Positions 64 through 59,489 of a stretch of DNA of 64,000 bases are shown here, in pieces. The notes below the pieces were generated by a model that was given only the letters and a program-made list of their open reading frames with translations, made no database searches and was not told the DNA's origin. Positions within the stretch are counted from its first letter, which is position 1. The number at the start of each line of letters is the position of its first letter. This DNA comes from a virus (taxonomy: Duplodnaviria; Heunggongvirae; Uroviricota; Caudoviricetes). Both the position numbers and the translations under genes were made by a program. The DNA lies in IMG/VR virus record IMGVR_UViG_3300029288_000059, positions 97,237-161,236 of that record. One strand, written 5' to 3'.

Positions 64-1173
64 TTGTTTAATGCCCGTTATACTAGAAACGTATCATTAA
101 ACAAAGCTATACAGTCAATGGATATAATATATGTCCATATTACTAGAGGGACATTATTAGAATTACGGGGTGAAATCGAAGCGGCATTAATAAGAGCTAC
201 CTCAAATGATTTTAATACATTCCTATTATTAAATAGTATTAGTAAATTGAATGATGATGGTTGGGACAATCCATATCATAATATAAATCATACCAAAACA
301 GTATTAACGAATTTATTACAAAAGACTAATGATTTAGAATTGGGTGTTGCTGCGATATTTCATGACTTTATGTATAGTCCAAAGAATGATAGTGATGATA
401 ATTTGGGGCGTGCTGAAATTGCATTTAATAACAATATATCTAAGTTATCATTAAATCATCTTATAACCGCTGAATCATATAAAAAGATTAATAATTTAAT
501 AGCTACATCTGATTACAATAGTAAAAAAGATGAGTACAGTAATATACTATTCGAATCGGATATATCACATTTTACGCGTACTAAGGAAGAAATTATTGAA
601 ACAGAGATGTTATTATTTAAAGAATATCAACAGTATGATTTTATGATGTATAGAAAAGAACATACAAAAATATTACGGACTATTTATGAGATTACTAATA
701 ACTCACAAGTTAAGATGGGTATTGAGGTAGCGATATCTTGGCTATCTACCTTTACTCCCAAGATTGGTTGGTTCTGTGGCTCATTTAACCCATTCACAAT
801 AGGTCACTTGGATATATTACAAAAGGCAGAGTTACAGTTTGATAAGGTTGTAATTGTGCAAGCACAAAATCCTACTAAAACCCAAATTAATAAGATACAG
901 TGTGAATCATTAAACAACGAATGTATTATTGTTGAAAATATGCCTAATGCAATTAATCAATGTTATTATACTCCAACATTAATTAGAGGGGTTCGAAACC
1001 AACGTGATGTTGAGGATTCACAGTTATGGTTATCCCAAATTAATGAATTGGTTAATGAGCCAGTCCAATGTACGGTTATCATTGGAGACCAACGTTTAAC
1101 GCATATTAGTTCTACCTTTGTAAGACAAGTTAAAGATATGGGTAATGATATAACTCCTTGGTTGGTCTCATAA
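64..1173 (+). CDS. HD-domain protein fused to a C-terminal CoaD/PPAT-like nucleotidyltransferase
   Basis: YHNINH...AIFHD...D HD signature; C-terminal GSFNPFTIGH, LIRGVRN and ISSTFVR motifs of the HIGH/TxGH family. True start may be a downstream ATG. Confidence 0.75.
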   Translation: MFNARYTRNVSLNKAIQSMDIIYVHITRGTLLELRGEIEAALIRATSNDFNTFLLLNSISKLNDDGWDNPYHNINHTKTVLTNLLQKTNDLELGVAAIFHDFMYSPKNDSDDNLGRAEIAFNNNISKLSLNHLITAESYKKINNLIATSDYNSKKDEYSNILFESDISHFTRTKEEIIETEMLLFKEYQQYDFMMYRKEHTKILRTIYEITNNSQVKMGIEVAISWLSTFTPKIGWFCGSFNPFTIGHLDILQKAELQFDKVVIVQAQNPTKTQINKIQCESLNNECIIVENMPNAINQCYYTPTLIRGVRNQRDVEDSQLWLSQINELVNEPVQCTVIIGDQRLTHISSTFVRQVKDMGNDITPWLVS

Positions 1174-3860: not shown

Positions 3861-3902
3861 TAGTTTATAATTTAAGTATAACACATCACATCGTAATGTC
3901 AA
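3861..3902 (-). promoter_or_regulatory. Phage early promoter motif TTGAC-N-TGTTATACTTAAATTATAAAC
   Basis: -35 TTGACA, TGn extended -10 TATACT and conserved downstream AAATTATAA; recurs many times in the window. Confidence 0.7.
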
Positions 3903-31853: not shown

Positions 31854-31945
31854 GTTAAATATTTTAAAATAGGTATTGACTCATTTGTTTAATATGTTAT
31901 ACTTAAATTATAAACACATAAAGAAATATATAGAAGGAGTCCCCC

Positions 31946-32349: not shown

Positions 32350-32470
32350 CCGATGGCTTGTTTAGTGATAATACCTATCTAGATAGATTAAGTGATGGGA
32401 GTTTACAGTCCCCATCTCCAAAAAACTTAAAACAACACAATGTTAATAATGTATTGGTTTAGGTGACTGT
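32350..32470 (+). ncRNA. Orphan copy of the TnpB 3' end / omegaRNA-like scaffold
   Basis: About 6 substitutions and 1 indel versus the reverse complement of 50774-50895. Confidence 0.7.
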
Positions 32471-39423: not shown

Positions 39424-39822
39424 ATGACCAATATGACCAATATTATCAATCCAAAGGACGCAAGAGTAATTACCAATAATAATAACGATAAGTTACCTAA
39501 GGTATCCTTTAATACTAGACAACCATCAACTTATAAATTTGACATAGTAACTCCCGATAATATCGAGGTTTACTTCCCAAATTATAAAAAGATAATAACT
39601 GATAATATAACGGCTGTTGCCGATAGTGGACAGTTTGAAACTGAAATACCATTCCATAAATGTAATATTGGCGGTAATATTAGATATGACCAGTTAGGTG
39701 ATGTTATAGCTAAGGAATTACACGATATGGGGTATGAATCCCATTACTCATTCTGTCAAGACGTATTGTTTATTTCTTGGTATGAAGGTCATGTAGTACC
39801 AAAAATGTTTAGTATAATTTAA
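39424..39822 (+). CDS. Paralog family member 7 (start MTNMTN)
   Basis: LHDMGYES...LFISWY; GGAG RBS. Confidence 0.65.
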   Translation: MTNMTNIINPKDARVITNNNNDKLPKVSFNTRQPSTYKFDIVTPDNIEVYFPNYKKIITDNITAVADSGQFETEIPFHKCNIGGNIRYDQLGDVIAKELHDMGYESHYSFCQDVLFISWYEGHVVPKMFSII

Positions 39823-39865
39823 AATAATTATTGACAAACTTTCTAGTTATGTTATAAATAACGTT

Positions 39866-47182: not shown

Positions 47183-48742
47183 ATGGGTCTTCTTACTAAT
47201 GAATATAGAAATAAACGTCCTTATAATACAACATTAGAACAACAAACTGTTGATTATAGTTTGTCACAAAAGGATTATGCTATATATACTCCTAGTATCT
47301 CTATTAACTATACACATTATGGTATGCACGATAATATGGAGTCTTTTGGTGTTAAGACTAAAGGATATTCCCCTAATTCCCGTATGCCATCAGTATATCA
47401 CCCCGAAGGTGATGAGAATAATTATCTACAACGTGATAATGGTAACTTTTATTATCCGTATTGTTTGTTTTCTGCGGGTCATGCAGAATTAGACATTAAT
47501 AAAGTCACTAATGATAAAGCAAATTTAATGATACATGGCCACGGTAAGGATAGTATTGTTATTGGTGATAGTGGTGGTTATCAAATTGCAACGGGTGTAA
47601 TACCTATTAAGTGGAGTGACCCAAATTCACTTAATGTTTGGAGAATGAAGATTTTACGTTGGTTAGAGGCCACTGCCGACTACACACCAACATTAGATAT
47701 ACCTACTCATATTATACATAGAACACCACAGGCTGGTTATAAGACGATTAATGACTGTTTAAACGGAACAGTCGAAAATTTAAAGTTTTTCGTTAAGAAT
47801 AGAGTTCCAGGTGCTACTAATTTTTTAAATGTCTTACAAGGACGTACCGTAGAAGAAGCACTGACGTGGTACGATACTGTTAAGCAATATGAATTCGAGG
47901 GTTGGACTATGGCTGGTCCGCCGGCAGAGGATTTCGAAGTAGTATTAAATTTACTAATAAGGTTGAGAGATGAAAAACGAATCTCCGATAATAAACATTG
48001 GATTCATTTCTTGGGTGTTAGTAGATTAGGAGCTGCTTGCGCATATACTACAATACAACGAATATTGAGGGAACAAGTATCCCCGAAGATGACACTTAGT
48101 TTTGATAGTTCTTCGCCATTCCTATCCGTAGCAAAAGGTGGAATTTATACCACCGTCGCTATGGACCAAAGTAGTAAGAGTAAATCATTTGGACCAGTAG
48201 TAAGGGATGCTCCGGACGATAGAAAATATCAAGGGTCAACGATGTTATTACAGGAATGGCTCGAACAAACTTATGGTACTACTAGTTATGATAGTACGGC
48301 CATATCACGTAAACTATCGATTGGTGAAATATGTAGAGATGGTGCTACACCAACATCGCGTTCGAGTTGGGATACTATATCGTATATGCATATAATGAAT
48401 CATAATATTGAATGTCATGTTAGAGGTGTTCAACGTGCGTGTGAAAAATATGATTTACCATACGAAGAAGCGTCAAAGTATATACCATACGAATTATTGA
48501 TGTTTAGAGATGTTATTGCTAATGAAGTGTTTAATAGTGAAACCCCATACGATGTTATAAAGAAGTACAAGACGGAACTCAATAACTTGATTGGTATGAA
48601 AGCAAAACGTCCAGTAATTGACAATAGTGTATCGAAATTCTTTGGTGAAGAGTTAATGAGAGAACATATTGAAGTGGAAGAAAAAGTTAAACCTCAACCA
48701 ATCATTATAAATGATAAAGCTAAATCATTATTTGAATTTTAG
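47183..48742 (+). CDS. tRNA-guanine transglycosylase / DpdA-like protein
   Basis: GDSGGYQ, LDIP, NVLQG, IHFLG, SFDSSSP TGT-fold motifs. Confidence 0.75.
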   Translation: MGLLTNEYRNKRPYNTTLEQQTVDYSLSQKDYAIYTPSISINYTHYGMHDNMESFGVKTKGYSPNSRMPSVYHPEGDENNYLQRDNGNFYYPYCLFSAGHAELDINKVTNDKANLMIHGHGKDSIVIGDSGGYQIATGVIPIKWSDPNSLNVWRMKILRWLEATADYTPTLDIPTHIIHRTPQAGYKTINDCLNGTVENLKFFVKNRVPGATNFLNVLQGRTVEEALTWYDTVKQYEFEGWTMAGPPAEDFEVVLNLLIRLRDEKRISDNKHWIHFLGVSRLGAACAYTTIQRILREQVSPKMTLSFDSSSPFLSVAKGGIYTTVAMDQSSKSKSFGPVVRDAPDDRKYQGSTMLLQEWLEQTYGTTSYDSTAISRKLSIGEICRDGATPTSRSSWDTISYMHIMNHNIECHVRGVQRACEKYDLPYEEASKYIPYELLMFRDVIANEVFNSETPYDVIKKYKTELNNLIGMKAKRPVIDNSVSKFFGEELMREHIEVEEKVKPQPIIINDKAKSLFEF

Positions 48743-50543: not shown

Positions 50544-50735
50544 TTATAATTCGGGAGTTAATTTATGTAAGGCATCTCGTTCATTACGCACTTCATCAAC
50601 AGTCATCGTTTTCAACTGCGTGATATATTTGCGTTTCTGAAATAGGATACCATCCCTTTGTGAGATATATCCTTTCAGATTGACGCATTGTTTTATGAAC
50701 GTCTCATGTGTGGTTATTATTTTCCGTCTACTCAT
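50544..50735 (-). CDS. Hypothetical early protein
   Basis: AAGGAG RBS; preceded by the -10 half of the early promoter. Confidence 0.6.
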   Translation of the reverse strand: MSRRKIITTHETFIKQCVNLKGYISQRDGILFQKRKYITQLKTMTVDEVRNERDALHKLTPEL

Positions 50736-50773
50736 TGTAATTACTCCTTATTACTGTTTATAATATAAGTATA

Positions 50774-50895
50774 ACAGTCACTTAAACCAATACATTATTA
50801 ACATTGTATTGTTTTAAGTTTATTTGGAGATGGGGACTGTAAACTCCCATCACTTAATCTATCTAGATAGGTACTATCACTGAATATGCCATCGG
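50774..50895 (-). ncRNA. Putative omegaRNA scaffold (3' part) / element right end overlapping the tnpB 3' end
   Basis: Hairpins CTATCTAGATAG, GATGGG..CCCATC and CTTAAAACAATACA/TGTATTGGTTTAAG; boundary defined by the second copy. Confidence 0.65.
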
Positions 50896-52153
50896 TAGTC
50901 CAGTAAAACCCTTTTCTATTCAAATTAAGTTTGCGGATATTCCACGGGATTTCAGGCAAATCCATACTTAGATTGATAGATGCATTTAAGTCTGCATCTA
51001 TACCTAAACCACAATTATGGCACGTATAGGTTTTACCTTTCCGATTCGACTTCCGCACTTGTCCACAACAACTACATCTTTGACTTCGGTAAGTAGATGC
51101 CTGTTTCTCCACTCGGACCCCGAGTGATTCACAAACAGACAACAACTTGTCTCTGATTATAGTATTCTGCCAATGTTTTAACATTGAACTCGAATTTGTT
51201 TTATAATTAATGTTCCATATATCTTCTAAATTGACTTGTTTTATGTTATTAAAATTGAGTTGATTTATCGACCAATTAACAAAATTAACTTGGTGCTGTT
51301 TAGCACGTTTAAATGCGTTACTACCTCTTTTCTTCCGACATACCTTGTCTAATATGGATTTTTGAGTATGTCCATGTATATCCGTTTTAGTGGTGACTTG
51401 TGTATCTGATAGTGTCAGTACGTCCAATACTCCTTGGTCGGCACCAATGATACTACCAGTAGTACGTAAGGAAGGAGATGGGATGTCCCATCTAATATCT
51501 ACTTTCTTTGGTGTTATTAGGAAAGAGGACATCATCTTACCAATAATTTTGAATTTATTAGAGTGACGTGTCATATTAATAGGAATACATATATTCATTT
51601 TATCTTTAGTGATAGAAGTAATGTGTAAAAAGCCATCAAATTCATTGAATTCATTGTTATTTTTATTAGTATTATAGAATTTACAGCATATCGAGTTCAG
51701 TTCCATGTTGATATTAGTACAAGTGGGCTTTTGTGGTATATTCTGCTTTATTTTCTTAATCAGTTGTGATAATTGCTTTTTTGTATATCCATCTTGCTTT
51801 AATTTATTATATTGATATATACGTTTTCTTTGTTTATCGGTACTTGCTTTAAGTATACCATTCACTTGTCCGATAATGCATTTAAGGCATCTACTTGTTA
51901 AAAATGTATTAATATCTGCCAATTCTAGTATATTGGTAGGGAGGTATGTAGGTAAATCAAATAGATTACGTGATACATCAAAAGTCGTAGTATGTAATAT
52001 ATTATTTGATTTATATGTAGTAATAACCGGGTTATCCCAACAATAGTCTATTAGTAGTGAACATACTCTTATATACTCATTATGTAGTATAGCTAAGTTA
52101 GATAACTTACCTGTATTGCTATTTTGTATAGTATGAGTACTCGTACGTATCAT
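50798..52153 (-). CDS. tnpB: TnpB (IS200/IS605/IS607-type RNA-guided nuclease), no TnpA seen
   Basis: RuvC-I GADQG, RuvC-II LEDI, SQRCSCCG..CHNCG zinc finger, RuvC-III DADLNAS. Confidence 0.9.
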   Translation of the reverse strand: MIRTSTHTIQNSNTGKLSNLAILHNEYIRVCSLLIDYCWDNPVITTYKSNNILHTTTFDVSRNLFDLPTYLPTNILELADINTFLTSRCLKCIIGQVNGILKASTDKQRKRIYQYNKLKQDGYTKKQLSQLIKKIKQNIPQKPTCTNINMELNSICCKFYNTNKNNNEFNEFDGFLHITSITKDKMNICIPINMTRHSNKFKIIGKMMSSFLITPKKVDIRWDIPSPSLRTTGSIIGADQGVLDVLTLSDTQVTTKTDIHGHTQKSILDKVCRKKRGSNAFKRAKQHQVNFVNWSINQLNFNNIKQVNLEDIWNINYKTNSSSMLKHWQNTIIRDKLLSVCESLGVRVEKQASTYRSQRCSCCGQVRKSNRKGKTYTCHNCGLGIDADLNASINLSMDLPEIPWNIRKLNLNRKGFYWTTDGIFSDSTYLDRLSDGSLQSPSPNKLKTIQC

Positions 52154-52307
52154 ATCATATAACTTCCTTATTATTTAAAGTTAGTATGTACTTCATTAGT
52201 AAGTAAGTCAATATATTATTTATATACAAATAATGTTGTATTATGTTATAAAAGGTAATAGATTATATAATGTTAATTAACACATCATAAGGAGTAGTCA
52301 ATACTAA

Positions 52308-55620: not shown

Positions 55621-55660
55621 TTGACTTTATAATTTAAACTGTTATACTTAAATTATAAAC
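55621..55660 (+). promoter_or_regulatory. Phage early promoter motif
   Basis: TTGACT-16nt-TATACT-TAAATTATAAAC. Confidence 0.75.
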
Positions 55661-55679
55661 CAACATAAGGAATAAACAA

Positions 55680-59062: not shown

Positions 59063-59144
59063 TTTCTTTATCCTTTATGGGTGTTTGTAATTTAAGTATA
59101 ACATAATAAATTATAATGTCAACACTTAAATTATAGATTAGCCT

Positions 59145-59330: not shown

Positions 59331-59489
59331 TTTCTTTATCCTTTATGTGTGTTTATAATTTAAGTATAACATAATAAATTATAATGTCAACCGTTATTTT
59401 AAATTATTTTACGTTAATAGAGATTAAAAAATAGTTAATGCCCCTATTGACATATATTATTCATAATGTTAGTATAAAGTTATAAACAA

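Follow-up and report, generated by a model that had tools for sequence, protein, structure and literature searches.

A tnpB-only IS607-type element in a repeated phage promoter: a probable chance landing tolerated through one guide mismatch

The guide of a TnpB nuclease is set by the place where its element lands, and landing in a repeated motif should be self-destructive. The window analyzed here, meaning the whole stretch of 64,000 nucleotides, contains a tnpB element (copy A) whose predicted guide reads a promoter motif that recurs throughout the phage genome. How can such an element persist on the replicon that it appears to target? The sequence comparisons described below lead us to regard as probable a chance landing, tolerated thanks to one guide mismatch that probably stops the phage from cutting itself. 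Feature coordinates are collected in Table 1.

A repeated promoter and the element that interrupts it

The preliminary description had located a 21-nt motif at 50756-50776 (minus strand) with five further copies, all of which were recovered in place and with the mismatches reported for them. At ≤3 mismatches the motif has 8 matches, compared with 0.05 expected and none in 100 shuffles, and 43 copies at ≤4 mismatches are spread across the 290-kb genome. Most are preceded by TTGAC at a distance of 19 nt and followed by a ribosome-binding site and ATG, giving a layout of -35 TTGAC(A/T), a 16-nt spacer with a terminal TGT, -10 TATACT, and a conserved start region. About 33 near-identical promoters of this type occur in the phage. 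Its polymerase is nearest to those of PA5oct-like phages (47%), placing it by this protein with the PA5oct/RaK2-like jumbo phages, and PA5oct has about 32 such promoters that are read by the host RNA polymerase (PMC7318152). A search with the 21-nt motif matched just two contigs, both from a single unrelated phage and flanked by CTGT, and searches of IMG/VR for close relatives using tnpB, the neighboring resolvase, and the right end found none. The DNA polymerase B gene of the phage (window 42137-46336, plus strand) is divided into two ORFs, the first closing and the second opening with an intein-like half, and a 340-aa ORF lies between them; a sibling phage has the same layout, suggestive of a split intein that encloses a free-standing endonuclease gene.

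The same sibling (L132, L136) carries this promoter uninterrupted, flanked as here by the resolvase-like gene and the 63-aa gene. Its flanking genes are 86-89% identical to those around copy A, and the DNA to the right of the promoter is only about 70% identical. If copy A is deleted with one TGT kept, the -35 box (52301-52296) and the -10 box (50773) come to lie at standard spacing, and the product matches the sibling allele in register, showing a scarless insertion without target duplication or terminal inverted repeats. The sibling allele has the same -35 box, one SNP in the spacer, and the consensus A at the site corresponding to guide position 9. This natural empty allele confirms the proposal that the element had landed in a promoter, while the "early" attached to that promoter is a reading of its sigma-70-type boxes. 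A second candidate split point, TTGACT at 52211, was rejected; that promoter is internal to the element, and its region is conserved across copies A-D.

Table 1. Features of the copy A locus and related promoter copies in the window
Feature	Position	Strand	Remarks
IS607-type tnpB-only element (copy A)	50774..52282	-	1,509 bp; TGT at both junctions
tnpB	50798..52153	-	451 aa; RuvC D239/E310/D388 and C4 zinc finger intact
Candidate sigma-70-like promoter inside copy A, for tnpB and guide RNA	52183..52211	-	TTGACT, 17 nt, CATACT; consensus match only
Omega-RNA hairpin	50829..50851	-	loop 50840-50835 (ACAGTC) pairs with scaffold end; covariation
Scaffold and element end, GACTGT	50774..50779	-	3' strand of pseudoknot; makes right junction flank CTGT
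Predicted guide	50754..50773	-	-10 box TATACT and start region of split promoter; position 9 = 50765, T
Stranded upstream promoter half	52280..52301	-	-35 TTGACT (52301-52296), spacer, left flank ending ATGTGT (predicted TAM)
63-aa ORF, first gene after split promoter	50544..50735	-	orthologue follows intact promoter in sibling
Promoter copy	3861..3886	-	6-nt flank same as element's own site; mismatches at guide 9, 19, 20
Promoter copy	31892..31917	+	ATGT flank; mismatches at guide 9, 20
Promoter copy	59349..59374	-	ATGT flank; mismatches at guide 9, 20
Promoter copy	59081..59106	-	ATGT flank; mismatches at guide 9, 14, 20
Promoter copy	55637..55662	+	CTGT flank, identical to element's own right junction flank

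The ends of copy A were set by this empty allele and by alignment to its relatives in the same genome, which holds four close tnpB copies (A-D), one distant copy (E), and one right-end fragment. All six right ends are alike up to a terminal CTGT and diverge after it, and all five left ends start with TGT. The right-end-only fragment (window 32350-32470, plus strand) retains an intact omega-RNA scaffold with its own guide and starts straight after ATGT, as if the entire left part had been deleted at the junction. The distance from the left end of copy A to tnpB is only about 130 nt, and copy A has no tnpA, whereas a near-full tnpA lies upstream in 38 of 83 homologue loci. No full tnpA is present in this assembly (79% complete); the sole trace is a remnant before copy E (L005, C1:94339-94500), an IS607 tnpA cut down to its N-terminal DNA-binding part ahead of the divergent tnpB (39% identity). 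The TnpA of one homologue, L049, scores 181 bits on NF033518 (cut-off 110), identifying it as an IS607 serine recombinase. Assignment to IS200/IS605 was rejected, given that the junctions share a core and the homologues carry IS607 TnpA. The family comprises 41 viral and 258 metagenome loci, against 2 matches in 185,579 prokaryote genomes, and the clade is mainly phage-borne.

The encoded protein matches PF07282, has the TNB zinc finger, and contains the RuvC D-E-D triad; D239, E310, and D388 are invariant in 44 homologues, bearing out the earlier view that the acidic residues are intact. It scores below the cut-offs of NCBIfam NF040570 (49 bits against 100) and NF038280 (28 bits against 350). 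Its fold is closest to Cas12f and ISFba1 TnpB, with a match to 8IAZ at E 1.8e-11 and 13% identity. Comparisons among the tnpB copies gave dN/dS of 0.10-0.16, and those of copy A with the others 0.10-0.15, indicative of purifying selection.

Does a landing at a promoter call for a special explanation? Of the intergenic sites, as counted with a crude gene mask, 9 of 59 GTGT (15%) and 23 of 433 RTGT are at the promoter register, and the chance of at least one such landing in six insertions is 28-63%. Copy C lies within the -35 box of a different promoter and copy D in a start codon, as expected of survivors in a genome that is 91% coding. None of 72 distinct homologue guides begins with a -10 hexamer, and promoter targeting as a family trait was rejected on this ground. 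The landing is thus not special; the promoter consensus contains the target motif of the element.

Besides copy A, two landings at promoters were observed. The left end of copy C (C1:172875-172910, outside the window) entered the -35 box of an opposite-strand promoter and has C where the other copies have T, rebuilding TTGACA for the interrupted promoter; that promoter carries T at guide position 9 and has a 12-nt seed match to the copy A guide with an ATGT flank. The right flank of a sibling element (L135:512-537) resembles a promoter spacer and -10 box, which would be a further landing, on a 537 bp contig that looks chimeric.

Guide start, TAM, and matches in the genome

The hairpin near the end of tnpB has a 6-bp stem that is 97.8% paired, with four pairs showing two-sided changes, and its loop (50840-50835) pairs with the last six bases of the element (50779-50774). 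Over 62 loci this pairing held in 91.8% of cells compared with 35-49% in slid controls. Pair 20/100 reads CG in 32 loci, GC in 23, and UA in 2; the choice of the 62 ends had itself demanded the loop pairing at that position, so that the count leans toward a pseudoknot, and the alignment within the genome is independent of that choice. The omega-RNA structure overlaps the 3' end of tnpB (z -3.0). The scaffold-guide boundary is sharp in the six copies, with sequence conservation ending after the final T of GACTGT. No Rfam family, RAGATH-18 included, matches the scaffold. The homologues L009-L129 fall into two subtypes in which loop and right end co-vary (ACAG/CTGT versus AGAG/CTCT), implying two TAM classes.

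Since TGT is common to all six right ends and is paired in the covarying pseudoknot, it is not part of the guide, which is therefore predicted to start at 50773, or at 50774 at the earliest. The preliminary description had taken the three bases TGT (50776-50774) as the beginning of the motif read by the guide; these are the end of the element and scaffold, and 50777-50797 is also scaffold. It had allowed that a true guide start elsewhere would count against its claim, and the start does move by 3 nt, yet this shift strengthens the TAM match. The TGT then falls to the predicted TAM. For IS607 elements, target sequence to the left of the insertion serves as the TAM, the scaffold end repeats the last TAM bases, and a one-base difference shields the element's own junction (PMC10690162). 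The left flanks in this genome are GTGT (copies A and E) and ATGT (copies B, C, and D), with CTGT at the right junction, and five homologous element pairs have GTGT at the left junction. These flanks point to RTGT as the TAM, to which a fifth base may contribute.

Several observations touch on this motif. In window 39805-39828 (plus strand) and 956-979 (minus strand) lie empty sites for elements carried by close relatives (L123, L134), with flanks 97-99% identical, ATGT, and at least 19/20 guide matches; keeping one TGT rebuilds the site. This phage is accordingly a predicted target of the elements of its siblings. The left junction of one sibling element (L007:560-580) seems to be longer by two bases (GT) than the homologous empty site, which suggests a GT core with slippage at GTGT sites. 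The tnpB genes of copies B, C, and D deviate from the family consensus and from copy A at residues 88-96 and 152-155, a possible TAM shift; these segments are a REC helix and a WED loop, parts that contact the TAM in other TnpBs. A co-variation of these residues with the flank (family residues and GTGT in copy A, differing residues and ATGT in copies B-D) was considered and is not claimed, because L007 has an A-type protein and a junction better read as ATGT plus two extra bases.

The central claim of the preliminary description, that the guide addresses a repeated motif, holds for this genome and for the sibling phage, with compatible flanks. The bases 5' of the promoter copies were compared, and six other promoters, one of them in the window at 3880, have the exact 6-nt flank of the element, an identity that holds whatever the exact TAM. 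Over guide positions 1-18, these six differ at position 9 only. Adding six promoters with ATGT gives twelve RTGT-flanked promoters that match guide positions 1-16 save position 9, one of them at 19/20. Of 33 promoters, 31 have A at position 9, as does the sibling empty allele; the occupied allele has T. As found, the guide has no perfect RTGT-flanked target of at least 13 nt anywhere in the genome. A guide with the consensus A at this position would have 13 perfect RTGT-flanked targets at 13 nt, 12 at 16 nt, and 11 at 18 nt. None of the other five guides of the genome has a TGT-flanked site at ≤2 mismatches over 16 nt. The promoter copy with the CTGT flank (Table 1) is probably not a target, through the kind of self-avoidance described for CboIStron (PMC10690162).

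Readings of the mismatch at position 9

The difference between no perfect target and 11-13 of them leads to the simplest reading, that only an allele missing the other promoters allowed the element to persist here. A single mismatch within positions 1-13 is enough to abolish or strongly impair cutting by ISFba1 TnpB (PMC11061315), a tolerance that we borrow here from a distant enzyme (13% identity to 8IAZ). We propose that a serine recombinase supplied in trans from elsewhere would have put the non-autonomous IS607-type element into a GTGT site, which happened to be the extended -10 of one among the near-identical promoters. The guide would be the right flank, as in all TnpB elements, and would read the promoter -10 and start region, with the bases just before it as TAM. 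The T at position 9, inside the mismatch-sensitive region and either pre-existing or fixed after insertion, would spare the phage from self-cutting. The nuclease could then still cut its own excision scar, its normal job, and would cut the other promoters and the sibling empty allele poorly. The promoter match would be a tolerated by-product, neither an evolved weapon nor a regulator. Against a selected T, 2 of 8 GTGT promoters and 8 of 28 RTGT promoters are free of perfect second targets anyway, the half-promoter may have changed by drift alone, and the sibling, with only about 70% identity to the right of the promoter, may not show the immediate ancestor; evidence for selection on T is modest.

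Such drift belongs to another reading, unlikely yet deserving weight, in which copy A is harmless for other reasons and T9 is neutral: it may be poorly expressed or inactive, a longer TAM may be unfit for its own site or for the promoters, or the DNA may be shielded. A longer TAM gains from the bases before the sites, in that A precedes five of six ATGT sites (AATGT) and G one, while copy A is at TGTGT and the promoters have TATGT or TGTGT. Other IS607 TnpBs require all five TAM bases (PMC11061315), and TnpA, not TnpB, chooses the insertion site. Inactivity is harder to reconcile with the intact ORF, RuvC, zinc finger, scaffold, pseudoknot, and internal promoter and with a dN/dS of about 0.13, and an unfit TAM with the GTGT at the left junction in the five homologous element pairs. 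As to a shield, a 519-aa gene (window 47183-48742, plus strand) looks by eye like tRNA-guanine transglycosylase-like phage genes and was considered as a modifier of the phage DNA, but it matches no family in Pfam, NCBIfam, or PHROGs. It was rejected as a source of self/non-self difference since the sibling carries the same gene.

Binding can be less demanding than cutting. TldR binding requires just a TAM and about 6 nt and represses promoters (10.1101/2023.11.30.569447), and dead TnpB binds TAM sites with little need for a seed (10.1101/2023.03.14.532601). A perfect 8-nt seed match to the guide is present at 7 GTGT and 10 ATGT sites, and some occupancy is likely if the RNP is made. The other TnpB copies could load the copy A guide as well, given their nearly identical scaffolds. 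The RNP could sit on the -10 boxes of many host-polymerase promoters and dampen them as it accumulates, a first step to a TldR-like repressor that the phage would tolerate or exploit, although we consider this improbable. RuvC is undegraded, both transposon ends are intact, and the sibling lives without the element; moreover, no other family member has such a guide, and no selection signal is specific to copy A. In its boldest form, one mutation in the guide would have led an intact TnpB to repress many promoters of the phage that carries it, with 7-17 -10 boxes bound uncut and the RNP contributing to their shutdown later in infection, a proposal that we find similarly improbable. If true, this TnpB would stand midway between a selfish nuclease and a TldR-type transcription factor, a living intermediate arrived at through a change of guide and not of protein. 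Bind-only repression had been among the outcomes first suggested for this locus, and the seed matches keep it in consideration, with nothing that shows selection for it.

The other suggested outcomes, attack on competing phages and homing into promoters, found no support, as the sibling and the phage itself share the position-9 mismatch and the 72 homologue guides include no promoter-directed one. An active multi-site weapon or promoter-homing drive against co-infecting relatives would draw on the orthologous site of the sibling, which has the same flank, 18/20 guide matches (mismatches at 9 and 20), and the 86-89% identical flanks available for repair. A promoter of the phage itself, however, matches better (19/20) than that site, and since the mismatch at 9 is common to both, cutting relatives would mean cutting at least six own promoters. 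If the mismatch is not tolerated, homing into siblings or attack on them would be blunted too, leaving no self/non-self difference to exploit. Exact 16-nt guide matches with ATGT also occur in nine unrelated viral contigs, some at promoters, which would favor a weapon; these contigs are otherwise dissimilar to the phage, none has GTGT, and the matches are best read as generic extended -10 sequence. Non-orthologous promoters offer no flanking homology for homing, and one promoter only holds the element at this register. Taken together, such a role is very improbable, and a tolerated chance landing is the reading that we carry forward.

Comparison with known systems

The locus amounts to a natural, specified test in which both the occupied and the empty allele are available, self targets number 6-12, and a single base makes the difference. 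It bears on how elements avoid killing their own replicon, on what this avoidance costs in homing, and on whether binding without cutting comes free. The mainly phage-borne IS607 clade that the locus brings to light has TGT/TCT junctions, and its predicted RTGT TAM departs from the G-rich ones described for IS607 TnpBs. IS607 typically has a GG core dinucleotide or G-rich TAM (PMC13565253); the TGT junctions of this genome, and the TGT or TCT ones of its homologues, mark a variant clade. No paper on an IS607 clade with TGT/TCT junctions was found in the literature searched, the coverage of which was incomplete.

The promoters resemble the sigma-70-like promoters of the PA5oct/RaK2 type (PMC7318152) in having about 30 copies, TTGAC with an AT-rich -10, and reading by the host RNA polymerase; the exact motif differs, and early timing is a prediction for this phage. 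Among TnpB systems, CboIStron TnpB/TnpA(S) (PMC10690162) likewise belongs to a serine-recombinase family, lacks inverted repeats and target duplication, and has a short core at both junctions. In both, the scaffold ends on the last TAM bases, the right flank serves as guide, and the right junction departs from the TAM by one base (TCGG versus TGGG there, CTGT versus RTGT here). In contrast, the core here is TGT (or GT) rather than GG, the element is phage-borne, copy A is without tnpA, and its guide matches many sites of its own replicon. The fused group I intron of an IStron is also absent, with no Rfam match in the approximately 130 nt from the left end to tnpB. The ISFba1-type IS607 TnpBs with RAGATH-18 RNA (PMC11061315, PDB 8IAZ) are similarly IS607-linked, with the same fold and a pseudoknotted scaffold, but identity is 13%, their TAMs are AGGAG or GAGGG, and RAGATH-18 is not matched here.

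The TldRs, nuclease-dead TnpB repressors (10.1101/2023.11.30.569447), share with this locus a phage-encoded protein and a guide complementary to TAM-adjacent promoter DNA, and the promoters matched here are indeed flanked by the predicted TAM. TldRs, however, have lost both their RuvC residues and the setting of a transposon, and they act on a host promoter, whereas copy A retains its catalytic triad and both ends, and the promoters that its guide would address are those of the phage itself.
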